The translations under genes were made by a program, and so were the position numbers. From the NCBI RefSeq assembly GCF_004010195.1, contig NC_057719.1, positions 42,771,024-42,805,675 on the forward strand: a stretch of DNA of 34,652 nt. Direction: 5' to 3'. Below the pieces are notes generated by a model. The model saw only the letters and a program-made list of their open reading frames with translations. It had not been told where the DNA came from and did not search any database. This DNA is from Chiloscyllium plagiosum (lineage: Eukaryota). Below, one piece after another: positions 4,580 to 34,652 of the stretch. Each line of letters opens with the position of its first letter. Positions within the stretch are counted from its first letter, which is position 1.

Positions 4580-4740
4580 TCCTCATCAAAGTCGTGACAA
4601 TATTTCAGCAATTACCTTCTCTTATCCTGCCACATGTATTACTTTCAAATTAAATGGCTGTAACAATAAACTCCAACGAAACAGTCTCATAATTTTATCT
4701 ATAAACCTTTCCAACAATATTAAGGGGTCAGGTGCAATCA
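4580..4740 (-). pseudogene. Gypsy RNase H C-terminal remnant
   Basis: Minus strand reads RLFRWSLLLQPFNLKVIHVAG*EKVIAEILSR, matching the RW.L.LQ....I.H..G..N..AD.LSR motif. Confidence 0.85.
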
Positions 4741-4818
4741 CCTGACGGAGTAGCACTCTGAAAGCTAGTGCTTCAAAATAAACCTATTGGACTATAACTT
4801 GGTGTTGTGTGATTTTTA
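4741..4818 (+). mobile_element. Short Penelope-like terminal-repeat fragment with decayed hammerhead motif
   Basis: CCTGAC-GGAGT-AGC-ACTCT-GAAAGCTAGTG...AAACCTATTGGACTATAACTTGGTGTTGTG; same family as 15880-15950. Confidence 0.6.
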
Positions 4819-4819
4819 A

Positions 4820-5300
4820 AAATAACCAGATCATCTATGTGTGCCACACAATTGGGTAATTCTGAAATGAATTGGTTAGTCTTTAAAATGTGGATGGTAC
4901 ATTTTACATACTAAGTGCTTTAACTTGAAATTAGTAAATTCTATTTGGTGTCACAAAAGCCAAAATTTCCTTTGCTCTCTCAGATAAAAGTATCTGCCAG
5001 TAATCTTTAAGCTAGTCCAGCTTTGAAACATAAGTTTCTTGTCCCACCTTCTCAATTAATCTTTCAGCCATAGAATAGGATATAAATCAGATTTTATAAT
5101 TGCATTGACTTTGCAGTAGTCAATACCTACATATTGGGTATCATCTGGTTTTGGCACCATCATTATGGGTAAATTCCATTGACCACAACTCACTTTGATT
5201 GAATTATATTTGAGCATGCTTTCAATTTTTTTTTTATACATCTGCCAATTTTAAAGGGTTAAGTGTATAAGGATGTTGCTTAATTGGAACAGAATTTCCT
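4820..5300 (-). pseudogene. Gypsy reverse transcriptase remnant
   Basis: IKQHPY; QWNLPIMMVPKPDDTQYVGIDYCKVNAIIKSDLYPI; LKDYWQI; AHIDDLVIF (YIDD-equivalent). Confidence 0.88.
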
Positions 5301-5499
5301 GTATCTACATCATGTGTAATCATGTTAGTACTTCCTAGCTTATTCCCACATATCTCTCCACGTGATTGTAATAACTCTTTCAGGTCATTTCAATTTTCCT
5401 CTGGAATTTATCAATAATTTATCCCAATTTTTGAGAAACTCCTCCTTACCCAATTTAATTTGAAAATGATCAAATTCAAATTTATCTGGATTTGCTTAT

Positions 5500-6716
5500 T
5501 CACTCCGAGTGGTAACAAATACCAAATTGTCCTTTGCTTTCCTTCCTGATCAAAATACCATTTGACCGTACTCACATGACACGGTCTGTGAGTTTTCTTT
5601 CTATCTGGCATTCTAATCAAATAATTCACCTCACTCAATTTCCTTTCAATTTGATAAGGCTCACTAAACCTTGCTTTTAAAGGTTCATCTACCTTTGGTA
5701 GTAACATTAACACTTTATCTCCTCTACTGAAACAACAAATTTTTCATTTCTTTTCTGCTTCTTGTTTCAACATGTACTTTCAAATGCTGTCTAGCCAACT
5801 CACCCATTCTATTTAACCTTTCTCTGAAACAAAATCCCAAATATATGGTCATCAAACTCTGACTTACCAATATTTCCTGAATTAATTTAAGTCACCCTCT
5901 CATCTCATTCCGAAAACTAATTCAAATGGACTGAATTTAGCTGAATCACTGGGTGCATCCTAATTTCAAAAATTACATATGGAATTCATCTATCCCAATC
6001 TTCTGGATAGTCTTGACCATAAACCCCCAGCGTGGTCTTTAAAATTTGAGGCATCCTTCTAATGTTCCTTGCAATTCTGAATGGTACGCTGTTGATTTTA
6101 ATTGTTTTATTCCTAAGTAATCTATAACTTACTTGAATAATTTTGATGCAGAATTTGACCCTTGATCTGATTGTATCTCTCTAGGTAGTCTATATCAAGT
6201 ATAAAATATTTCTTCTAACTTCCTTTTAGCTGTAATATTGCATAATGGAATAACATCTGGAAAGCATGTAATGCATCCATTATGGAGTTTTGAGAAGATT
6301 TGTAGCTCAGGTTGAGGTTCTGGATGTAAGTTCCCTCGCTGAGCTAGAAGGTTCGTGTCAGACATTTCATCACCATACTAGGTAATATCATCAGAGAGCC
6401 TCCAATGAAGCACTGGTGGTATTGCCCGCTTTTTATTTATGTGTAAATAATGGTTAACAAATATTGATTTCCACTTTTTGTTTTAGGGAAGGGTCCTATA
6501 CAATCAATTAATACTCTTATAAAAGGTTTCTCAAATGCTGGAAAAGGTATTAATGGCGTTGGTTTTATTCTGCCTGTTTATTACTTCCTATTACCTGACA
6601 TATGTGACCTGTCCACGAAAACTCAACCACATCTCAATGTAGTCCATGGCAGTAAAAATGTTTTTGTAGTTTGCTTTGAGTTTTCCTTACTCCCAAATGA
6701 CCTTTTACTGGTACAT
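5500..6716 (-). pseudogene. Gypsy integrase remnant (HHCC, core, GPY/F module)
   Basis: GHLGVRKTQ...HFY...HICQVIG; PFIRVLIDCIGPFPKTKSGNQYLLTI; EIQSDQGSN; LGIKQLKSTAYHSELQG; PLKARFSEPYQIERKLSEVNYLI. Confidence 0.9.
6285..6445 (-). mobile_element. Short insertion in the integrase carrying a hammerhead-like motif (probable Penelope-like terminal fragment)
   Basis: Interrupts the codons LLTI|MDA with a degenerate duplication ATTATGG/ATAATGG. Minus strand 6394-6361 reads CTGATGA-T-ATTACC-TAGTAT-GGTGAT-GAAA-TG-TC. Confidence 0.6.
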
Positions 6717-7116: not shown

Positions 7117-7277
7117 CTGTTCATAAAATAGATGTTGTTCATAACATTCTTGGTGGGGGGAGGTAATATTGAAGCCCATATCATCCAGTCCTGTTGTAAA
7201 TCATGTGCCATTTTCGAGTATTAGCCAAGGCAGTTTATTTCAGCTTATTCCCTTTTATGTTGATGGTAGTAGTACTT

Positions 7278-7376
7278 CAGTTCTAATGTAGAGTCACCAG
7301 ACTCGGAATGTTAACACTGCTTCCTCCCCACAGATGCTGCCAGACCTGCTGAATTCTAGCAATAATTTTGGTTTTT
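7278..7376 (+). mobile_element. Decayed Penelope-like terminal fragment
   Basis: TTCTAATGTA-GAGTC-ACCA-GACTC-GGAATGTTAAC...CACAGATGCTGCCAGACCTGCTGA; related to 29890-30045. Confidence 0.55.
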
Positions 7377-9189
7377 GTTGGTAGTTTAGTAACACTTCTT
7401 AATCAGTTTTAAACAACATAAACTAAAATAATCAAATTACCAAAACTATTTAAAAGAATTGGTGATAATGTCATTTACACCTTCAACTCATGTTGATGTT
7501 GAATGCATTGTTATAGAATGTTTCATCAGCTATATGAATAATTGGACATTGATGCCATGGTTTCTCACTACAGTGTGACACTGCCTTTATTGATGAGCTT
7601 GCGTTAATGAACATTTTTCATTAGTGAATGGTTTCCTTTTATGTTGAAGACTAAAATCTGAGTGTATGAAGGTGGACAATACACTACTGGTGCTACAGTT
7701 GGTTATCTGAAGTTGTTTTGGAAAAACTGGATGAAGCATCACCTCGTATACATTCATCATTTCATTTACAGCATGGCAGGAAATATGGATGATTGCAAAA
7801 TGAATCCCAATGTGTACAAGTGATTTGTGATGTGATATAACATATCCTGATTTTATATTGATGCTGAAGTAACCATTAAACTACCAATATTTTCATCCTT
7901 AGTGTACAGATTTAGCCTTTGTCAAAATAATTTTAAATATACTATCCCTCACACCAGGCATAGAAGTCAGACCTCTGCAAACCCGAGAAGTGAGCTCCTA
8001 TACTTGAGCAGTAGCTAGTTCTCTAAAATTCTTAGTTGAAATATGACTTGGTTATGAAGTTCTTCTAAAAAGGTTTATGATCATTTTCTTTGTGTGGTCA
8101 AGCCAAAAAATGTAATGTAAAAACAACTCGCGGTACCATTTTTTTGCTAATAGATTGAAGGTTACACTAAAAGTGAAAAGCTTCATGTGCAACTTTTAAA
8201 TGAGGGAAAAGAAAGCATTTTATAAAACAGTTGTAAAAGTTATCCAAGGACTATTCCCATGCTTTAGGGCCTTGCAAGGATAATTACAAAGTGTTTACAA
8301 GAACAATGCACAGTAGGATCCTTATCTCAGCTCTTGTATTGAGCATTCTGATGGAAGTGAAAATGGAGTAAAGTAACATTTATATCAGCTACCTTATTGA
8401 ATAAATCATAAAACAAAATTAAAAACTTAAAGAATTGAATTCAAAAATGGCATCAAGTTCATACTTCCACAGTGTTTATGAAAATATAATGGTCATTAGC
8501 TGCACTGCTCTTTCTGTTTTCAGTTGACTGTGATAATTCAGTGTGGCCTCAGCATGTCCTACAGTTTATTACATACAATGAAGCAATATTAGAGGTGTAG
8601 CCATTGATGGAATCATAACAGCAGTTCAATAAGCTGGTTGACCACACCTGTTCGACTGACAAGTTAGATACAAACTGTAAATACTGGCATTGTCAGCAAT
8701 GCCCATGTCTCATGATAAAATATATAAGTTTTGTTAATATTTGTTTTTTGTTTGTAAAGTCTGTGCTTTTTGAAACAAGTTGAGACTCTACAGTTCATGC
8801 ATTTTGCTCATTGATGTGGATGTACCTGCCTGTCTTGTTGAAGTATGCAAGTTATTAAGTCACAACAAACTTCAGTATAAAAGTAAGCATTGCTGAAAAG
8901 ATGCATAGATTCAAAGCATTTCACCTTGCAGTTATCAAGTCTGCAAAGCAAGAAAATCAATTTAAAAAGGGTTAGTTAGACTTGGTTGGTATGAAGGTGT
9001 AATGGGGCTTATTAACAGTTAAATGAAATTCAAAGCAGGCATGTTAACTCAGGTGAGAGCATTGCCATTGAAATGCAGGTGTTTTCATTGGCTTTTCCTC
9101 ACTGAAATAAAGGCATTGTTTGAGCGTGTTTTTTTCTCTATTGGAAGGAGAAGGCGTCTCAATTTGAGCAAAGGTGAAACGAGCCATTT

Positions 9190-10156: not shown

Positions 10157-10914
10157 TGGTGAGAAGGGAAAAATTTTAAAGGGACCTTAGGGGCAACTTG
10201 TTCACACAAAGGGTGGTGCGAGTATGGAATGAGCTGCCAGAGGGGAGATAGAGAACACTTCAGAGAACATCTCTGGGCCACACGAACCCAACAACCCCAC
10301 TGCCGACTACTTCAATTCTCCCTCCCACTCCACCAAGGACACGCAAGTCCTGGGCTCCTCTACTGCCAAATCAAACCATCCAATGACGGGAGGAAGAATG
10401 CCTCATCTTCTGTCTTGGTACCCTCCAACAATATGGCATCAACAGTGACTTCACTAGTTTCCAAATCAACAATCCTCCCACCTCATCCCAAATCCAACCT
10501 CCCAGCTCCGCACTGCCCTCTTGACCTGCCGTACCTGTCCATCATCATTCCCTCCTATCCACTTCACCTTTCCGCACCACCCCCTCATTCACATTCCTAA
10601 TGAAGGGCTTATGCCCTCCTTCTCCTTCTCCTCGGATGCTGCCAGACCTGCTGTGCTTTTCCAGCACCATACTTTTTGACTCTAACTCTCCAGAATCTGC
10701 AGTCCTCACTTTCTGTCAGAGGAAATGGTAGAGGCTGGCACAATTACAACATTTAAAAGGCATCTAAATGGGTATATGAATAGGAAGGGTTTAGAGTCAT
10801 ATGGGCCAAGTGCTGGCAAATGGGACTAGATTAGGTTGGGATATCTTGTCAGCATGGCTGAGTTGGACCGAAGGGTCTGTTTCTGTGTTGTACGTCTCTA
10901 TGACTCTATGACTC
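10157..10914 (+). mobile_element. Short CR1 3' end, interrupted by a Penelope-like fragment
   Basis: FTQRVVRVWNELP|EE continues at 10713; CTATGACT x2 tail ends at ~10914. Confidence 0.88.
10244..10712 (+). mobile_element. Penelope-like element 3' fragment (GIY-YIG C-terminal region plus terminal repeat)
   Basis: FREHLWATR...FNSPSHS...LGLL...LIFCLGTLQQYGINSDF (frameshifted), a C-rich tract, then CTAATGAAGGGCTTATGCCC. Flanked by a 10-bp TSD CTGCCAGAGG/CTGTCAGAGG. Confidence 0.8.
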
Positions 10915-13059: not shown

Positions 13060-13633
13060 CAAACTTTAATTTACGAGCTAACTCATAATCATTTGCCATT
13101 TCTGCTGCTAATCTCGTGTTTAACTCTTTGTTCTTCTACACGAGTTCTGACTATTTCAGGAAGTGAAATTTAGAACTCCTCCAAAATAACACGCTCTCTA
13201 AAAGTGTCATATGTCTGATCTATTTTCAATCCTCTTAGACACCTATCAAAGGTACTTTGTTTGATCCTTTCAAACTCTGTATACATTTGATCAAGTTCCC
13301 TCCTTAGATTCCTGAAATATTGTCTTTTGGCATTAGTTCATATGCACTTAAGATGGCTTTTTTCACCTCAGCATATTCCCCAAATACCTTCTCTGATATT
13401 GACTCAAATACCTCACTAGATCTATATGCCAACTTTGTTGAGTCCACAATGTCATTGGTCACTGGCCATTTCATTTGTTTAGCTACTTTCTCAAATAAAA
13501 TGAAAAAGGCTTCTACATTCTTCTTGTCAAACTTTAGCAATGCTTGGACATATTTAAACAGATCCCTACCAGGCTTTTGGTGATGATAGGTTTGCTTTTC
13601 ATCTCTGTTCTCATCAGTACTCTTACCTACCAC
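13060..13633 (-). pseudogene. Gypsy gag remnant with SCAN-like capsid C-terminal domain
   Basis: VEAFFILFEKVAKQMKWP...VKKAILSAYEL, then (frameshift) FRNLRRE...FDRCL...RERVILEEF*ISLPEIVRTRVEEQ...AAEMANDYE. Confidence 0.8.
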
Positions 13634-15704
13634 CTTCGCTATTATATGTCGATTTCCTCTTTCATTGTCAACTTATGAAGTTCAAAAACTCTCAATTTCT
13701 CCCTCTCTTCTATATGTTTCTCCTTTTTTTTATCTGCTAGGGCCATCCTTTCTTTCGAAAAGCCCTATGTTAAATGCATGTTTTCTTTTAAATATCTTGC
13801 TAAAAAGTACTATTCCTCTCTAAAATCTATGTTCTGTTTGGCTGACATATTCATTGCCTTATTTAGAGTATATGATTTTAAACATTATATTGCAAGGAAT
13901 AGTTTTGTCATATTTCATCTATTAACTTTTCCCTTCATAAAATATGGGACTTGCTGAGACTCAGCTGCTGAATCAGAGCCTCCTAATCAGAGATTGTTGG
14001 TTGGATAATAAAGTTAATTGGATAATACCTAATTACATTTTATGAAGCTCAATCAGTGGCAAAGCCTTTTAAAAATTAATCCATAGTGCTGTTTCAAAAT
14101 AAAAATCTCATTCTAACTCTATAATCCCTCAAGTGTGCTGACATTACAACATTGGTCCAATGACAATACTTTGTAAGGAACAGACCACAGCATAGCTGAA
14201 CAGCTGGATCAGGAAATGGAAACAGCAATTTCTAACAGATGTAAACAAAGTCTGTTAAAATAATGGTTAGGATCTTGTAGTTGGATGAAATGTGTTCTCT
14301 TGTGAATCCATTTTGTGCTTTAACTATGCTGTTCGTAATGGATTGGAATGAAGGCTAAGTTTATCCTTAAGGTACGACATTTACAAGATCTTTATCCTTT
14401 ATGTACTTTATGCCTCAAACAATCTTAGGGATTACAGTCCAGTTATTAGTCTTCCATATAAAGATCTGTTTTCTGATAATTTTTCCTACAAGTTTCCTTG
14501 TACTCTTGAATCCATGTCCATTTGGGTTTGTTAAAGGATGGGTCCACCTCTGCTTTCTCTGGTCCATTAAGAATCAGTGAACTGTATAAAGAAGTTTTTA
14601 TTTTGAATGTCCCAGTTTATCTCTAAATATTTCATTTTATTGTTAGAATCCTTTCAGCATGTAATTCAGATCAGGCATTTCTTATTCTCAGTGTAACAGT
14701 TTGGAGCTCTATTTGCTACTTTGGTGTCTTGAAGGCACTGACTCATTCTGAGACACTGTTCCAGAACCATTAGATTTCTAAGTCTCTGTCCTCCACAAGC
14801 AGTACAAGTTTTGCTGTTTGCATGTCTGTTCTATTTCCATCTCTACATTCTCATGGAGAGGTTCAGAATTTATAGGAATTCTCACATTTGCAACGAAGAA
14901 TCACAGACTTCATTTCCATCCCAAAGTTTTGCTTTGAAAGTACATGTTACAAGGTAGGCAGATTTTATTTCTTAGAACTTTAAGTCCACCTTTAGTTTTA
15001 AAGACAACACGTACTGCATGGGTTTGCTTGGGAGAAGTGAAGGTCTAAGACCACTTAAGAAAATGGATCTGTAAAACAGAAAGTGAGTGGGAGAATGGGA
15101 CTAATATCTACAAGAGAGCTGAAAGGCTTTGGAGTCGATGGTCAGAGACTTGAGAGGAGAAAGAGAGGCAGTCAGACAGATTCAGAGAGGGGAAGAAGTA
15201 GTCACCAAGTGACGCTGGGAACATTGTTGTCAGGCAGTTGTGTTTTTTGTTAAATCTTATTTATGTTTCTACATTTGCGATGTAGATTGAAGCAGAGGAT
15301 TCCTGTTGCTGAAAGGGAGTTAAATAAAATATCAAGTTGGTTCATGTTTCTACTTAAAAACAAGCAGAAAATTTGACCTAAAGTCAAAAAATATTTAGTA
15401 CCTATTATGTATCAAATGAAAAATAACATTGGCACTGCATGTTCTGCAGTGCTGCAGACAAGAAGGCCACATGTCACAACATCCTTTATTTTAGTTCCAA
15501 AGTTGCTATTTCAAGATTACCAGTAAAGTATTTTCTCCCTATTTTCTACTGAAATATTTAATCAATTTCACCAAGTTGCATACAATTTTAAGCCCTTATT
15601 GGCTATTTCTCCAAAATGGTGATTGTCCCTAATGTTTACAAATGCAAGGTCACCACTATATATAGCAAGTCAGTTGGCAATACTTTCGTCATTATCTATG
15701 ATTT

Positions 15705-15950
15705 GGAGGAGCTGGTGTTAGACTGGGATGAACAAAGTTAAAAATCATACAACACCAAGAAAGAATAGCTGGTCAAGAAACATGTGATAAATATGTGTTT
15801 AAAAAAACAGACAACACCAGGTTATAACCCAACAGGTTTATTTGGAATCTTGAGCTTTTGAACCTCTGCTTTTTCAACACCTGATGAAGAAGCAGCACTT
15901 CGAAAGCTAGTGATTCCAAAGAAACCTGTTGGGCTATAACCTGGTGTTGT
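15705..15950. mobile_element. Penelope-like terminal repeats in inverted arrangement
   Basis: ACAACACCAGGTTATAACCCAACAGGTTT and its reverse complement flank a hammerhead motif; same family as 4741-4818. Confidence 0.6.
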
Positions 15951-16004
15951 CTGTTTTTTTAAACACATATTTATCACATGTTTCTTGACCAGCTATTCTT
16001 TCTT
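15757..16004. repeat. 93-bp inverted repeat (arms 15757-15849 and 15912-16004)
   Basis: The arms are reverse complements with 2 mismatches; 62-bp spacer. Confidence 0.95.
15878..15912 (+). ncRNA. Putative minimal type I hammerhead ribozyme motif
   Basis: CAC-CTGATGA-A-GAAG-CAGCA-CTTC-GAAA-GC-TA-GTG: complete core, 4-bp stem II, palindromic AGCT mini-helix III, 3-bp helix I CAC/GTG. Transcription and activity unknown. Confidence 0.6.
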
Positions 16005-18487: not shown

Positions 18488-18997
18488 TAAAACCTTAACA
18501 GATCTCTTATAATCTTATCACAAAGTTTTAAATGGGTACATGGATGGTGTAGCAGATCTCTTTTCACTGTTGCACTAAACAATATATATTGCAACTGATA
18601 ATACCATGAAAACTCATCTCAGTAATTCGAAACATAGAATTCAACATAAAGACAATCAAAGAAACTCTTTCTGCTAGAAAGGCCAATGGGTAATTCAATT
18701 CTATTGCTTACTATTATAAATGATGAAGCTGCATTGTAACAGCAATCTTTCAGCCATTCTCATGATTTCATGTTTTTTGCTACCTGATAGATAGGATGTA
18801 GCCATATTATATCACAATCCCAACAAAACATTTCAATACTTTCTTGGCTAAGAATAGTTTTGTTGATGGTTGGTGCACAGCTACATTGACCTTTTGGGAC
18901 TTGTATCAAGTCCAGCCAGAATGGTGAGATCTCTCTCTATCACTGTAAGCAAATCTGTGGGTTGAATTTTGCAGCCTTGACATATTTTCTACTGTGA

Positions 18998-19122
18998 AGA
19001 AGGGCTTATGCCCGAAACGTCGATTCTCCTGTTCCTTGGATGCTGCCTGACCTGCTGCGCTTTTCCAGCAACACATTTTCAGCTCTGATCTCCAGCATCT
19101 GCAGCCCTCACTTTCTCCTCAA
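18998..19122 (+). mobile_element. ~125-bp Penelope-like-derived mini-element with hammerhead motif at its 5' end
   Basis: Perfect 16-bp flanking duplication ATATTTTCTACTGTGA (18982-18997, 19123-19138); begins (TGA)AGA-A-GGGC-TTAT-GCCC-GAAA-CG-TC; matches the terminal part of the PLE fragment at 10597-10712. Confidence 0.8.
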
Positions 19123-22829: not shown

Positions 22830-25800
22830 TCATAGAGTCATAGAATCTTAGAGATGTACAGCATGGAAACAGACCCTATGGTCCAACCCGTCCATGCTTA
22901 CCAGATATCCCAACCCAATCTAATCCCACCTGCCAGCACCCGGCCCATATCCCTCCAAACCCTTCCTATTCATATACCCATCCAAATGCCTCTTAAATGT
23001 TGCAATTGTACCAGCCTCCACCACTTCCTCTGGCAGCTCATTCCATACATGTACCACCCTCTGTTTGAAAACCTGCCCCGTAGGTCTCTTTTATATCTTT
23101 ACCCTCTCACCCTAAACCTATGCTCTCTAGTTCTGGACTCCCTGACCCCAGGGAAAAGACTTTGCCTATTTACCCTATCCATGCCCCTCATAATTTTGTA
23201 AACCTCTATAAGGTCACCTCTCAGCCTCCGACGCTCCAGGGAAAACAGCCCCAGCCTGTTCAGCCTCTCCCGATAGCTCAAATCCTCCAACCCTGGCAAC
23301 ATCCTTGGAAATCTTTTCTGAACCCTTTCAAGTTTCACAACATCTTTCCGATAGGTAGGAGGCTAGAATTGCACGCAATATTCCAACAGTAGCCTAACCT
23401 ATGTCCTGTACAGCCGCAACATGACCTCCCAACTCCTGTACTCAATACTCTGACCAATAAAGAAAAGCATATCAAACGCCTTCTTCACTATCCTATTTCC
23501 CTGTGACTCTACTTTCAAGGAGCTATGAACCTACACTCCAAGGTCTCTTTGTTCAGCAACACTCTCTATGACCTTACCACTAAGTATATAAGTCCTGCTA
23601 AGATTTGCTTTCCCAAAATGCAGCACCTCACATTTATCAGAATTATACTCCATCTGCCACTTCTCAGCCATTTGGCCCATCTGATCAAGATCCTGTTGTA
23701 ATCTGAGGTAACCCTCTTCGCTGTCCACTACAACTCCAATTTTGGTGTCATCTGCAAACTTACTAACTGTACCTCTTATGCTCGCATCCAAATCATTTAT
23801 GTAAATGACAAGAAGTAGAGACACTTGTGGCACTCCACTGGTCACAGGCCTCCAGTCTGAAAAACAACCCTCCACCACCACCCTCTGTCTTCTACCTTTG
23901 ACCCAGTTCTGGATCCAAATGGATAGTTCTCCCTGTATTCCGTGATATCTAATCTTGCTAATCAGTCTCCCATGGGGAACCTTGTCGAACGCCTTACTGA
24001 AGTCCATATATATCACATCTACCAGTCTGCCATCATCAATCCTCTTTGTTACTTCTTCACAAAACTCAATCAGGTTTGTGAGACATGATTTCCCACGCAC
24101 AAAACCATGTTGACTATCCCGAATCAGTTCTTGCCTTTCCAAATACATGTACATCCTGTCCCTCAGGATTCCCTCCAACAACTTGCCCACCACCGGCTCA
24201 CTGGTCTATAGTTCCCTGGCTTGTCCTTACCACCTTTCTTAAACAGTGGCACCATGTTTGCCAACCTCCAGTCTTCCGGCACCTCACCTGTGACTATCGA
24301 TGATACAAATATCTTAGCAAGTGGCCCAGCAATCACTTCTCTAGTTTACCACAGCGTTCTAGGGTACACCTGATAATTTCCTGGGGATTTATCCACTTTT
24401 ACGCGTTTCAAGACATCCAGCACTTCCTCCTCTGTAATATGGACATTTTGCAAGATGTCACCATCTATTTCCCTACAGTCTATATCTACCATATCCTTTT
24501 CCACAGTAAATACTGATGCAAAATACTCATTTAGTACCTCCCCCATTTTTGCAGCTTCACACAAAGGCCCCCTTTGAGGGGCCCTATTCTCTCCCCAGTT
24601 ACCGTTTTGTCCTTCATGTATTTGTAAAAACCCTTTGGATTCTCCTCAATTGCATTTGCCAAAGCTATCTCATGTCCACTTTTTGCCCTTCTAATTTCCC
24701 ACTTAAGTATACTCCTACTTCCTTTATACTCTTCTAAGGATTCACTCGATCTATCCTGTCTATACCTTACATATGCATCCTTCTTTTTCTTAACCAAACC
24801 CTCAATTTCTTTAGTCATCCAGCATTCCCTATACCTACCAGCCTTTCCTTTCACCCTGACAGGAATATACTTTCACTGGATTCTCGATATCTCATTTCTG
24901 AAGGCTTCCCATTTTCCAGCCGTCCCTTAACCTGTGAACATCTGCCCCCAATCAGCTTTTGAAAGTTCTTGCCTAATACTGCCAAAATTGGCCTTTCTCT
25001 AATTTAGAATTTCAACTTTTAGATCTGGTCTATCCTTTTCGATCACTATTTTAAAACTAATAGAATTATGGTCGCTGGCCCAGTGTGCTCTCCCACTGAC
25101 ACCTCAGTCACCTGCCCTGCCTTATTTCCCAAGAGTAAGTCAAGTTTTGCACCTTCTCTAGTAGGTACATCCACATACTGAATCAGAAAATTGTCTTGTA
25201 CACACTTAACAAATTCCTCTCCATCTAAACCCTTAACACTTTGGCAGTCCCAGTCTAGGTTTGGAAAGTTAAATCCCCTTACATAACCACCCTATTTTTC
25301 TTACAAATAGCTGAGATCTCCTTACAAGTTTGTTTCTCAATTTCCCTCTATTAGGAGGTCTATAATACAATCGCAATAAGGTTATCATCCTTTTCTTATT
25401 TCTCAGTTCCACCCAAATAACTTCCCTGGATGTATTTCAGGGAATATCCTTCCTCAGCACAGCTGTAATGCTATCCCTTATCAAAAATGCCAACCCCCTC
25501 CTCTCTTACCTCCCTTTCTATCCTTCCTGTAGCATTTGTATCCTGGAATTAAGCTGCCAGTCCTGCCCATCCCTGAGCCATGTTTCCGTAATTGTTATGA
25601 TATCCCAGTCCCATGTTCCTAACCGTGCCCTGAGTTCATCTGCCTTCCCTGTTAGGCCCCTTGCATTGAAATAAATGCAGTTTAATTTATTTGTCTTACC
25701 TTGTCCCTGTCTACCCTGACTGTTTGACTCTCTTCTGTTCTCAACTGTACCAATCTCAGATTGATCTCTTTCTCACTATCTTCCTGAATCCCACCCCCAC

Positions 25801-27051: not shown

Positions 27052-27570
27052 CCTTTGGATCTTTTGTCTATGTTTGGATTAAGGCAGTAATAAGGTCAGA
27101 AACTAAGTGTAACCCAAACTGAGTGTCAGTGACCCAGGTTATTGTTGGAAGGCTGGATGGATCATCCACTTGAGGAGAGAGTGAGGACTGCAGATGCTGG
27201 AGATCAGAGCTGAAAATGTGTTGCTGGAAAAGCGCAGCAGTTCAGGCAGCATCCAGGGAACAGGAGAATCGACGTTTCGGGCATAAGCCCTTCATTCACT
27301 TGGCACTTCAAGCTGAAGATTGTTGCTTCGGCCTTACCTTTTGTACTGATGTGCAGGTCGCCTCCATCATTGTGAATGGGGATTTATGTGGATCCATCTG
27401 CTCCTATTATTGTTGAACTTTTCACCAGCATTCATGACTGGATGTGGCAGGACTGCAGAGCTTAGATCAATCTATTTATTGTGGGAAGGCTTACCTCTAT
27501 TTATCACTTGCTGCTTATGCTTCTTACTGCAAAAGTAGTCCAATTCTGCAGATTCACCAGATTGACACCT
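27052..27570 (-). mobile_element. Continuation of the old non-LTR element interrupted by CR1
   Basis: Minus strand LTSSKRSKEVNI-like junction across the TSD (LD....GEV...LDIK.AFD region); right boundary approximate. Confidence 0.5.
27173..27291 (-). mobile_element. Second ~120-bp Penelope-like-derived mini-element
   Basis: Reverse complement differs from 18999-19120 at only 4 positions; flanked by TCATCCACTTG/TCATTCACTTG (27162-27172, 27292-27302). Confidence 0.82.
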
Positions 27571-29183: not shown

Positions 29184-29354
29184 GTAAGAGTATCCAATTA
29201 AAAGTCAACTATGAAATCAAAACAAAACCTGAAGAAAACTTAATTAAAATGAAGAACTGCAGATACTGAAATTCTGAAAGAGATGCTGCCAGATCTGTTG
29301 AATTCCTCCAGCAATTTCTCTTTGTGCTTCTAAACAAAATTCAGATTTTCCTTT

Positions 29355-29889: not shown

Positions 29890-30045
29890 AAACAGAAATT
29901 GCTGGATAAACTCAGCAGGTCTGGAGAAAAAACACTTAACATTTTGAATCTGGTGACCCTTCTCCAGAACGGACTTAATGTTAACTCTGCTTTCTCTGCA
30001 CAGATGCTGCTAGGTCTGTTGAGTTCCTCCAGCAATTTCTCTTTG
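29890..30045. mobile_element. Inverted pair of decayed Penelope-like terminal fragments
   Basis: AGAAATTGCTGGA.AAACTCAGCAGGTCTGG and its reverse complement; minus-strand decayed motif CTGGAGA-A-GGGTC-ACCA-GATTC-AAAATGTT. Confidence 0.55.
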
Positions 30046-30209
30046 TGTTTCTAAAGAAAATTCAGCTTTTTCTATTATCATAAAAATTGCAGGATAAAAG
30101 GGACATTTAGCCTTTTCCATTTTCTCCTGTGTAGGCTCTTTAAGCAGTTCTAGCTACGCTAATACATCAGTTTCTGATCTCTCAGTTTTCTTGTGCAATT
30201 GAGTGAGAA

Positions 30210-30760: not shown

Positions 30761-30950
30761 AGAGTGGTTCTGGAAAAGCACAGCAGATCAGGCAGCATCT
30801 GAGGAGCAGGAGAATCGACGTTTCAGGCTGAAGGACTTTTGCCTGAAACGCCGATTTTCCTGCTCCTTGGATGCTGCCTGACCTGCTGTGCTTTTCCAGC
30901 ACCACTCTAATCTTGACTCTAATCGCCAGCATCTGCAGTACCCACTTCAG
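30761..30950. mobile_element. Head-to-head Penelope-like terminal repeats (68-bp inverted arms 30761-30828 / 30841-30908)
   Basis: Same family as 18998-19122; arms are reverse complements with about 6 mismatches. Confidence 0.8.
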
Positions 30951-31694
30951 CCTACCTGAATATGGGAACACACTGTTTACTTGTACGTTGAGTTGGAATA
31001 TGCAAGCTAAAAAAGACAAATCATTGTGAATATCAGGATCACATAGATAAGACAGATGGAATGAACAGCACAATTAGAATTTAATGTCTGCTATGTTTCT
31101 GTTGTTTTACATACATTCTAAGATGAATATTCCTCAACAAACACAGTTGTCCACTGAGGAATAGTAAAGAAAAATTAAAGTAATCAGCTGGTGTTCTGGC
31201 AGTTGTCTTTCTCTTTCCATTTATTTGTATATTCATCTGTATAGGGGTGGCCTTTGACAGTATGCGCTGTCTCCACAGTTCCTCAGGCCAAAGAAGGACA
31301 GGTGTTAACTCTCAATTTCAGGCTTTGCTTTCTTTCAGGTATGTTGGAATTCATAGAGATCCAGAGCACAGCAAAAGGCCCTTTAGCCCATTGGGTCTGC
31401 ACCACTCAGTTGGAGCTTTCTGGCTATTCTCCAACAACAGTGCACAATCAGCCCGAAGGCTCCATTCTTGAAGATCTAACATTCAGTTGCAGGCCTCAGA
31501 GGACTAAAATATTCCTATTCTGCAAGTTAATTGGCCTGACAGAGGTGGGTTGAGGCTAGAGTTGCTCTCAGGCATTGTTAATGCTACTGGCATTTGTGGT
31601 CAAATGTTAGGCGACAGGAGATCCAGGTAAATGTAAATAGGTTAAAACTCTCCATAATGCAGACATCTAACAGAACGTTGCACTGTTCTTTCAG

Positions 31695-31878
31695 ATTTGT
31701 AGTTACAGAGAGCGTGCCAGATGGTGTACATTATGGTGAAAATGCTACAAAATATCAATCAACATATAACTCCTGGTTAAACCTAATCAATATAGCAAAT
31801 AGCAGTCTGGATATTGCCTCATTCTATTGGACTCTTACCGGCCATGATATTAATGTGACTGATCCCACCTCCAAGCCT
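31695..31878 (+). CDS. PLD4: PLD3/PLD4-family exon, start of luminal catalytic domain (FVVTESVPDG...SWLNLINIANSSLDIASFYWTLTGHDINVTDPTSKP)
   Basis: Acceptor TGTTCTTTCAG, donor CCT|GTAAGT; 184 nt; ES.P and SLDIASFYWTLT motifs are diagnostic of PLD3/PLD4; TG.DI.V.D is PLD4-like; N-glycosylation sequons NAT, NSS, NVT. Confidence 0.93.
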
Positions 31879-32229
31879 GTAAGTAAAACTGTTCTGATTT
31901 GACTTGTACTTAGCCCTGTTCTGTGTTTTGTGTCCTGTAGTCTGCTTTGAGCTCAATAACAATGTAATGTGGTGCGAGGATCAAAATAGAAAGACAGAAA
32001 GGAGAAGGCAGATAGCACTCAAAGTTAGCAAATCACACAATCCAAATGGAACATATGCTAGTTGCTGAAAGAGGTTAATGTGGAAACAATTTATCCTCTG
32101 ACCCCAATCCGTCAATCCTCCTTGGGATACTGCCAGAAGATTTTAAATATTCTTGTTCAAAATGAGCACACATTACACCCAGTAAATGCAGACTCTTCAG
32201 TCCAATGTCAAGGGTGGGGTGGGGGGATC

Positions 32230-33704: not shown

Positions 33705-33894
33705 TTGTTTTATTCTATTTAAGCTCAGTATGTTTTTACATATATTAATAGATTAAAAATTCCACTATGTAGCAATGAGATATTTCTACCACTAGGTAGC
33801 ATTAGTTCCATGTTCAATGACCTTACAATAATTTAACGAAATACATTCCATTCTTTTTTTAAACCTTTTAATATTAGGACCTCTTCATTTCCAC

Positions 33895-34206
33895 CAGTTC
33901 TGTCACTACCAGCAGGATGTCACTGCTATCACATATTCTCTCCTTTTCTCTCAGCATTCCGCTAGGACTGTTCCCTTTGGGACACCTGGTCCACTCCTCC
34001 TCCTCTCCCTACACCTCCATTCCCAATATCTTCTTACCCCTGCACAACAACTTCCCCTGCAATCGCAAAAGATGCAACACTTGCCCGTTTACTTCTTCTA
34101 TTCTCACTATCCAAGGCCTCCAACACACTGTCCAGGTGAAACAGCGATTTACCTGCTCTTCACTCAATCTAGTCTACTGGACTCACTGCTCACAATGTGG
34201 TATTCT
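33895..34206 (+). mobile_element. Penelope-like (Neptune-type) element fragment: Cys-rich linker and start of GIY-YIG endonuclease
   Basis: FPCNRKRCNTCPF...QVKQRFTCSSLNLVYWTHCSQCG; truncated by the CR1 insertion before the YIG motif. Confidence 0.82.
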
Positions 34207-34652
34207 GGCTCGTATATGTGTGGAAAATGTGTGCACATTCAGCAATTGACCGAGCATATTGCAGCGCTGACGAAAGAACTCGAAGACCTTCGGCTCATCC
34301 GAGAAAACGAGATCTTTCTGGACAAGACCTTCAGCAATGTTATTACACCAATCATGCCAGAAGAGAGCAGAAGAGAGCAGATGATGAGGAAGGCAGAGAG
34401 GAGACAGGTGCAAGAGACCCCGGGAGAAGTACCTGTCAGGAACAAGTTGAAGCTTTTGGAAGCAGAGACTGATGACACTGCCAGTTCGCAAGGCGGCCAA
34501 GTTTGTCAATCAAAAGTTGCCGCAGAGGCAGAGCAGAAGAGTCGGACATCACACAGAGCCGTGGTAATAGGGGACTCCATCGTGAGAGGAACTGACCGAG
34601 GTTTTTGTGGCAGCAGACGGGACTTAAGGATGGTGTGTTGCCTTCCTGGTGC
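34207..34652 (+). mobile_element. Young CR1 LINE, 5'-truncated within ORF1; runs off the window
   Basis: Uninterrupted frame from 34207: SYMCGKCVHIQQLTEHIAALTKELEDLRLIRENE...RAVVIGDSIVRGTDRGFCGSRRDLRMVCCLPG (GDS esterase motif). Confidence 0.92.

Follow-up and report, generated by a model that had tools for sequence, protein, structure and literature searches.

Minimal hammerhead ribozymes in Penelope-like end repeats of the shark Chiloscyllium plagiosum and a probable origin of their short copies as run-off cDNA of a capped RNA leader

Minimal hammerhead ribozymes (min-HHRs) have been known since 2014 from the pLTRs of metazoan Penelope-like elements (PLEs) (Cervera & de la Pena; PMC4209133). 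That work gives the consensus CUGANGAH-G..C-GAAAN-palindrome-UH with an extra nucleotide after position 9, a short helix I, a loopless helix III, a U3–A8 core variant reported in Schistosoma, and thousands of mostly solo copies per genome with some opposite-strand pairs. Cleavage has been reported as absent in monomers and poor in dimers (PMC4209133, 10.64898/2026.07.22.740005, PMC11167929). EN+ PLE units combine a head-to-head inverted copy, target-site duplications (TSDs) and a one-ended 30–40-bp tail, and TATA/Inr-like motifs were seen in Adineta pLTRs (PMC8557442, PMC3846280, PMC2377424); the inversion is put down there to antisense self-priming, and Penelope of D. virilis has a TATA-less internal promoter and an intron ahead of the ribozyme (PMC2377424). 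For one Poseidon family, PAc of the green anole, in vitro work revealed two internal RT start sites that set the optional tail, nicking and extension of both strands, and uncut RNA as the template; the RNA start and genomic 5' ends are not covered in the available parts of the report (Frangieh et al. 2024, PMC11167929). Non-LTR retrozymes are PLE-related, carry type I hammerheads and reach up to 120,000 copies in axolotl, as head-to-tail tandems with typically canonical hammerheads and circular RNAs (PMC7229834; 10.64898/2026.07.22.740005); one cartilaginous fish is included in the retrozyme survey (10.64898/2026.07.22.740005). What the hammerhead does in PLEs and how the inverted ends arise are treated as open questions (PMC8557442, PMC11167929).

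Here we analysed a 34,652-nt stretch of Chiloscyllium plagiosum DNA (the window; Table 1) and placed its motifs in the genome. A preliminary description had listed nine intact or decayed hammerhead sites: on alignment, each of the nine proves to be a hammerhead-bearing pLTR end from one of four families, A (15881, 4742), B (10597, 18995, 27295, 30828), C (6394) and D/D2 (7284, 29970), and the core is intact in two of the nine only. The site at 30828 is an inverted-pair junction lacking the 5' core. Decayed arms on the opposite strand at 15880(-), 30828(-) and 29977(+) had been overlooked, as had a piece of tail at 29281(+). The A-U/G-C swap described there for copies 15881 and 4742 is confirmed, but the stem GGAGT/ACTCT is out of register, the family stem being GGAG/CUC[C/U]. 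A strict descriptor (exact CUGANGA, 0–1 extra base, at least 4 helix II pairs, GAAA, a paired dinucleotide and UH, with helix I optional) was matched twice in the window, at 15881(+) and at 6394(-), compared with a mean of 0.01 (maximum 1) in 200 window shuffles. The heptamer CUGANGA alone was not enriched there (31 versus 22.9 expected, reached by 10/100 shuffles), and an Rfam covariance-model scan of the window gave no hammerhead match at E<=1. One Rfam match, Plant_SRP, falls on a palindrome and was rejected as spurious. Other repeats in the window include broken LTR-retrotransposon-like fragments at 5414–5743(-), which matches Pfam Integrase_p58_C/SH3_Tf2, and 13307–13672(-), and numerous CR1/L2-type RT fragments (e.g., 23534–24205).

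Table 1. Hammerhead-bearing PLE ends and neighbouring features, in window coordinates.
Feature	Coordinates	Strand	Remarks
Family A pLTR stub (site 4742)	4735..4821	+	core with 2-nt deletion
Family C (Poseidon-type) pLTR fragment	6286..6440	-	intact core 6394-6361; CATAAA at -47
Family D pLTR stub (site 7284)	7277..7382	+	decayed core with several changes
Family B pLTR fragment (site 10597)	10389..10714	+	core has G5>A and lacks the GAAA box
Left arm of 15881 insertion, inverted	15698..15880	-	core decayed; ends at outer (tail) end
Minimal type I hammerhead of family A (Neptune-type PLE), intact	15878..15912	+	predicted cut after 15909
Family A pLTR stub, right arm	15878..15963	+	5' end offset -3 from C3; 3' end inner (tail-less)
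Young family B stub (site 18995)	18995..19122	+	lacks C3; 13-nt target-site duplication on its flanks
Young family B stub (site 27295)	27170..27296	-	lacks CUG
Head-to-head family D pair (site 29970)	29924..30073	.	decayed; several core changes at 29970
Head-to-head family B pair (site 30828)	30761..30947		arms cut off inside ribozyme; one tailed, one tail-less
Exon of PLD3/PLD4-like host gene	31690..31887	+	further exons at ~40458, 43733, 51751 (flank)
Neptune-type PLE ORF fragment	33878..34246	+	covers Cys linker and beginning of the GIY-YIG endonuclease

The motif at 15881(+) reads CAC-CUGAUGA-A-GAAG-CAGCA-CUUC-GAAA-GC-UA-GUG, a perfect minimal type I hammerhead. Helix I is CAC/GUG (15878–80/15910–12), helix II has 4 bp, helix III is a loopless GC, the core is C3–G8, an extra A follows position 9 and the G10.1–C11.1 pair is G-C. 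The predicted cut lies after 15909, as in the preliminary description. This copy is one of the two arms in an inverted repeat of 123 bp, with a predicted fold of -189.8 kcal/mol (z -23), and a search for a TSD around the insertion unit found none. The closest intact same-strand motifs lie 27 and 31.5 kb off, and their helix III is CG, not GC. The copy is ordinary for its kind, sits in this predicted hairpin and is likely inert. In the left arm, 15757–15797 is an exact 41-nt inverted copy of the right flank (15964–16004), after which the arm's own tail resumes. Across 15757–16004 the arms have derived changes in common in their outer parts and differ in the ribozyme part; the palindrome looks like the result of a later template switch between them.

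The assignment of the motifs to PLEs, proposed from the window, holds, with RT/GIY-YIG remnants upstream in families A, B, C and D. The D2 hammerhead lies ~0.7 kb downstream of same-strand RT and GIY-YIG frames of 509 and 497 aa. RT-thumb/linker/endonuclease remnants were detected by tblastn upstream of family A (8e-7, locus L004) and B copies (1.5e-38, L099; 5e-31, L059), at 3/7 loci tried, and a C2 copy follows a GIY-YIG end read in translation. None of the PLE proteins was recognised by Pfam, all scores being under the cut-off. Translations of A, B and D2 contain a CxxxxCxxC-type linker, and on this motif A, B and D are tentatively named Neptune-type; family C we take to be Poseidon-type. 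A query with the window's PLE linker yielded 47,823 first-look candidates. The optional tail, head-to-head partner and TSDs that mark EN+ PLEs all occur in sampled copies, most units here being pLTR-only stubs with a fixed end. Head-to-tail arrays of the non-LTR retrozyme kind are not the pattern: copies in the window, and by far most of those sampled, are dispersed, minimal, and solo or head-to-head. Same-strand duplicates of the hammerhead-bearing end, 130–330 nt apart, were occasionally seen (L005:1375–1580, L095, L138) and are the sole kind of locus observed from which a cis dimer could arise. The open frame of 4,039 aa listed at locus L064 (C96894) is probably a run of N. The motifs are further members of the class in print since 2014.

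The secondary structure is maintained across families. The covariation check proposed earlier gave 52/54 cells paired in six families, compared with 31.8 after shuffling (0/20,000), the shuffle disregarding relatedness and B and D having tail sequence in common. Because a MAFFT alignment of 15 representatives ran one column off between families, pairs were counted by descriptor. Helix II pairs 1–3, helix I pair 2 and pair 3–8 (C-G or U-A) are formed in all 13 real representatives, as is the extra nucleotide after position 9 present; pair II.1 is G-C in 9, G-U in 3 and A-U in 1, the helix III palindrome is GC or CG in 11/13, and helix I spans 2–4 bp. The U3–A8 variant dominates in D2, where the first 100 of the matches listed have U3/A8 in 93, C3/A8 in 7 and G8 in none. 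In D2 (L040, L061 and others), helix I is a 4-bp AGCU/AGCU that starts exactly at the predicted transcription start, its four bases following a pyrimidine tract and resembling a 3' splice site.

Genome-wide abundance was estimated from two samples (~1.16 Mb together): 80 stretches of 10 kb spaced evenly over C1–C18 (776,059 non-N bases) and 40 more over C19–C43 (388,309 bases). Strict motifs numbered 55 in the first, compared with 0–2 per shuffle (20 shuffles), and 27 in the second (82 pooled). Extrapolation to 3.56 Gb gives ~250,000 intact cores (199,000–311,000, Poisson), an estimate in which pairs are non-independent and whose sampling lies outside unplaced scaffolds. pLTR ends in any state, 276 and 120 in the two samples, extrapolate to ~1.2 million. 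Exact whole-genome pattern counts are 115,321 for the family B core, 24,864 for family A (a pattern that misses the loop variant of 15881) and 1,731 for D2, 141,916 in sum, with reversed-pattern controls at 0. The very large dispersed hammerhead-bearing population suggested by the window is borne out by these figures, counted and estimated, which are 15–60 times the published PLE-type counts consulted and were missed by Rfam; the 2014 survey gives ~4,000 copies for coelacanth and ~9,000 for Xenopus, and the supplementary file searched contains no shark entry (PMC4209133). The suggestion that some copies are sense-strand intronic is not established: the PLD3/PLD4-like gene runs on the + strand from the exon at 31690, and no upstream exon was located inside the window or within 20 kb before it. 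The exons of this gene in the window and flank (L065/L066) keep an intact HKD motif.

We then considered where copies begin and end, which, like the promoter and the cap mark treated below, is absent from the available parts of the min-HHR survey (PMC4209133). The 3' ends fall into two clusters, at about +82–92 and +113–124, ~35 nt apart, in agreement with the anole element, where two internal RT start sites define the optional tail (PMC11167929). In sample 1, 152/276 copies have a head-to-head partner. Of the close pairs that are 80% or more identical, taken over both samples, 57/66 combine a tailed with a tail-less arm, where about 50% is expected. 5' ends were scored in copies of at least 80% identity whose end was verified by a pair junction or TSD and lay at or upstream of +45, a set that omits 59 unverified and 13 shorter verified copies from sample 1 and 32 and 5 from sample 2. 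In sample 1, 72 of the 108 verified ends lie at -12..+6 from C3 (hazard ratio 10), a range picked after seeing that sample; with the range fixed in advance, sample 2 gave 32/48 (ratio 9, p 1.5e-13). All A and B copies together have 79/145 and 43/73 ends in this range, and the TSD-verified ends of sample 1 taken alone give 13/16. The bin at the cut site (+24..+32) holds 4/108 and 3/48 verified ends, and the idea that copies start where the hammerhead cuts was rejected. The hotspot is a property of the Neptune-type families here and, set against the Poseidon element PAc (PMC11167929), was unseen in Poseidon-type family C, which has no peak at the predicted start (3/25 ends in -12..+6, 0 at -16..-22). 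Ends spread over ~18 nt; genome-wide, family B ends number 7,753 at -3, 7,308 at -4 and 3,560 at -5, and many at -3 and -5 share microhomology with the partner arm. Most D rows with a scored end at -4 derived from another subfamily's reference and were set aside as evidence. A 3' splice site was considered as the cause of the D2 hotspot, given the pyrimidine tract and AG at -4; no recurrent upstream exon appears among the junctions examined.

Copies that keep the upstream pLTR carry a promoter-like box. TATAAA lies at -37..-40 in 17/23 family A rows, TATAAA/CATAAA at -32..-38 in 20/22 D2 rows, and a TATA-like box at -47..-53 in 12/15 family C rows. Family B has no canonical TATA and a conserved TTATCT at -33..-36 in 35/44 rows, which may be either a non-canonical TATA or a GATA-type site. 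B subfamilies that have diverged in other respects (e.g., L130, L059) retain TTATCT where the TATA box would lie. Counting 31 nt downstream from the box leads to A-8 (family A) or A-4 (B and D2), and ~31 nt is the standard spacing from TATA to start; in B1, A-4 sits in TCATTC, which we take to be an initiator-like word. In copies ending at these positions the preceding base is frequently G. Before A-4 of family B, the first 100 of the matches listed, read by eye, have G in 61, A in 28 and T in 11, compared with G in 26 before -5 and 16 before -3 (first 100 of the matches listed each; Fisher p 1e-6 and 6e-11), and genome-wide totals at A-4 are 4,946 G versus 2,564 A. Inspection by eye of 30 such loci traced the G to the partner arm in 5, to the TSD in 3 and to neither in 22. 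In family A, G precedes A-8 in 66 of the first 100 matches listed, and in 19/22 truncated loci; at the eight non-truncated loci the base is always T or A. For L1 and SVA, a 5' G that has no template is accepted as the mark of cap copying (PMC4859970). In B1b, the five letters G+ATTC also begin the 3' cleavage product, an alternative source of the G for family B and not for A.

Taken together, we consider the motifs to be minimal hammerheads in PLE end repeats and most short Neptune-type copies to be complete cDNA of the capped first ~90–130 nt of an uncut RNA, at a probability of roughly 0.7. Observed in its favour are family identity, covariation, copy number, the 5'-end pile-up, the TATA(-like) box, the excess G and the tail/no-tail asymmetry; a pLTR start of a capped RNA, run-off with cap copying, and priming from both nicks are steps that we infer from the DNA. 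Evidence against it comes from the scatter of the ends, the G shared with partner arm or TSD in 8/30 B loci, the missing canonical TATA of family B, the different behaviour of family C, the TATA-less promoter of D. virilis Penelope (PMC2377424), and RNA reads on a family B copy in which starts do not pile up. The pLTR promoter would drive a capped Pol II transcript from A-4 (B, D2) or A-8 (A), a start that would make the hammerhead the first ~35 nt of the RNA and the first transcript bases the 5' strand of helix I. The RT-endonuclease would nick target DNA, and reverse transcription would begin at either internal site, ~90 or ~125 nt downstream. From the 5' copy of the start site, RT would pass the uncut ribozyme, run off the RNA end and copy the cap as an extra G. 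Priming of both nicks, one per start site, would yield head-to-head pairs joined near the RNA start; long copies would come from the downstream pLTR, and stubs lacking the TATA box would be dead on arrival. As in full-length L1/SVA insertions and L1 twin priming, the extra G would be a copied cap and inversion would follow from priming at both nicks (PMC4859970); unlike in L1/SVA, full run-off here would leave a ~100-nt stub, since RT would prime internally and near the RNA start. With confidence slightly better than even, we further propose that, in the Neptune-type elements of this genome, a capped mRNA driven by a TATA box opens with the hammerhead as its initial ~35 nt and that the ~1 million stubs are "strong-stop"-like run-off copies of this leader, primed from both nicks at the two internal start sites. 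The genome-wide end pattern provides a testable and moderately well supported mechanism. Neither a cap/run-off model for PLE stubs nor a shark min-HHR census was found in the literature searched, and paywalled papers, Repbase or Dfam may hold them.

The strongest competing account retains the same elements and attributes the hotspot to RT stalling, or to fold-back or microhomology joining, at the folded or protein-bound 5' edge of the hammerhead in a longer RNA. Many pair junctions contain short palindromes or microhomologies at -3..+2, self-priming has been put forward for palindromic PLE junctions (PMC3846280), and the ~18-nt scatter of the 5' ends fits as well. We nevertheless judge this account unlikely: TSD-flanked solo copies have the same hotspot, the TATA spacing in A and D2 and the position-specific G are left unexplained, and a polymerase is expected to stall ahead of a structure, not past it.

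Less probable still is that stubs and palindromes are non-autonomous SINE- or retrozyme-like elements, themselves transcribed and re-copied. Such a cycle would suit the very high copy number and the recurrence of some junction sequences, and retrozymes do derive from PLE pLTRs (10.64898/2026.07.22.740005); it sits poorly with heterogeneous junctions and 5' ends, with stubs that have no upstream TATA box, with arms stopping at the two PLE tail boundaries in most close pairs, and with copies dispersed between TSDs, lacking canonical loops, instead of forming head-to-tail arrays.

We also weighed, and find very improbable, that dispersed copies are host-relevant ribozymes that cut pre-mRNAs as dimers or with protein assistance. 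The number of intact cores could be taken to favour this, as could a mismatch rate in family B that is slightly lower in the core (21/869, 2.4%) than in the tail (113/2897, 3.9%; p 0.04). In family A core and tail do not differ (12/299, 4.0%, versus 59/1246, 4.7%; p 0.76), all 11 core residues are intact in 60/87 B and 13/30 A copies (broken in 27 and 17), and hammerhead copies are equally numerous on both strands. Copies are found in RNA: 1,607 reads of one single-cell run map to a family B copy (L130:5760–6220) in both directions and span the cut site, with no pile-up of starts or ends in this fragmented library (about 2% of one run), and since 95% of them continue into unlike sequence they represent read-through from other copies. 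A>G (16 places) and T>C (12) are the commonest differences in these reads and could reflect hairpin editing or merely other copies. The published cleavage behaviour of monomers and dimers and the predicted hairpin around 15881 speak against host use as well. With 7/9 window cores broken, single copies decaying roughly like their tails, the best copy in a hairpin and its nearest neighbours far off and non-matching, a population of working ribozymes, as the preliminary description might have implied, is not supported. We read the hammerhead fold as being under selection in master elements, with near-neutral decay once inserted. The ribozyme of the master element is likely a slow, protein-assisted or dimer-dependent cutter, and the dispersed copies, that at 15881 among them, are likely inert. 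A chance resemblance within repeats, as the unenriched heptamer, the missing Rfam match, a monomer that folds like its shuffles (z 0.41) and folding energies likewise indistinguishable in 5/5 sequences might suggest, is refuted by the strict counts against shuffles, by compensatory changes in helices I, II and III and pair 3–8, and by the exact fit of the published consensus (PMC4209133).

If most stubs are cap-marked run-off copies, their templates were uncut, and simple experiments are predicted. The most direct prediction for the role of the ribozyme is a slow cut that removes a capped ~33-nt leader or trims the downstream copy; viral 5' UTR hammerheads have been linked to translation (PMC13725137). 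If true, the proposed mechanism would map a transcription start from DNA alone and explain inverted pLTRs without an antisense template, and the ribozyme of these PLEs would be a 5'-leader switch, acting in decapping or translation control, and not a processor of the transposition template.
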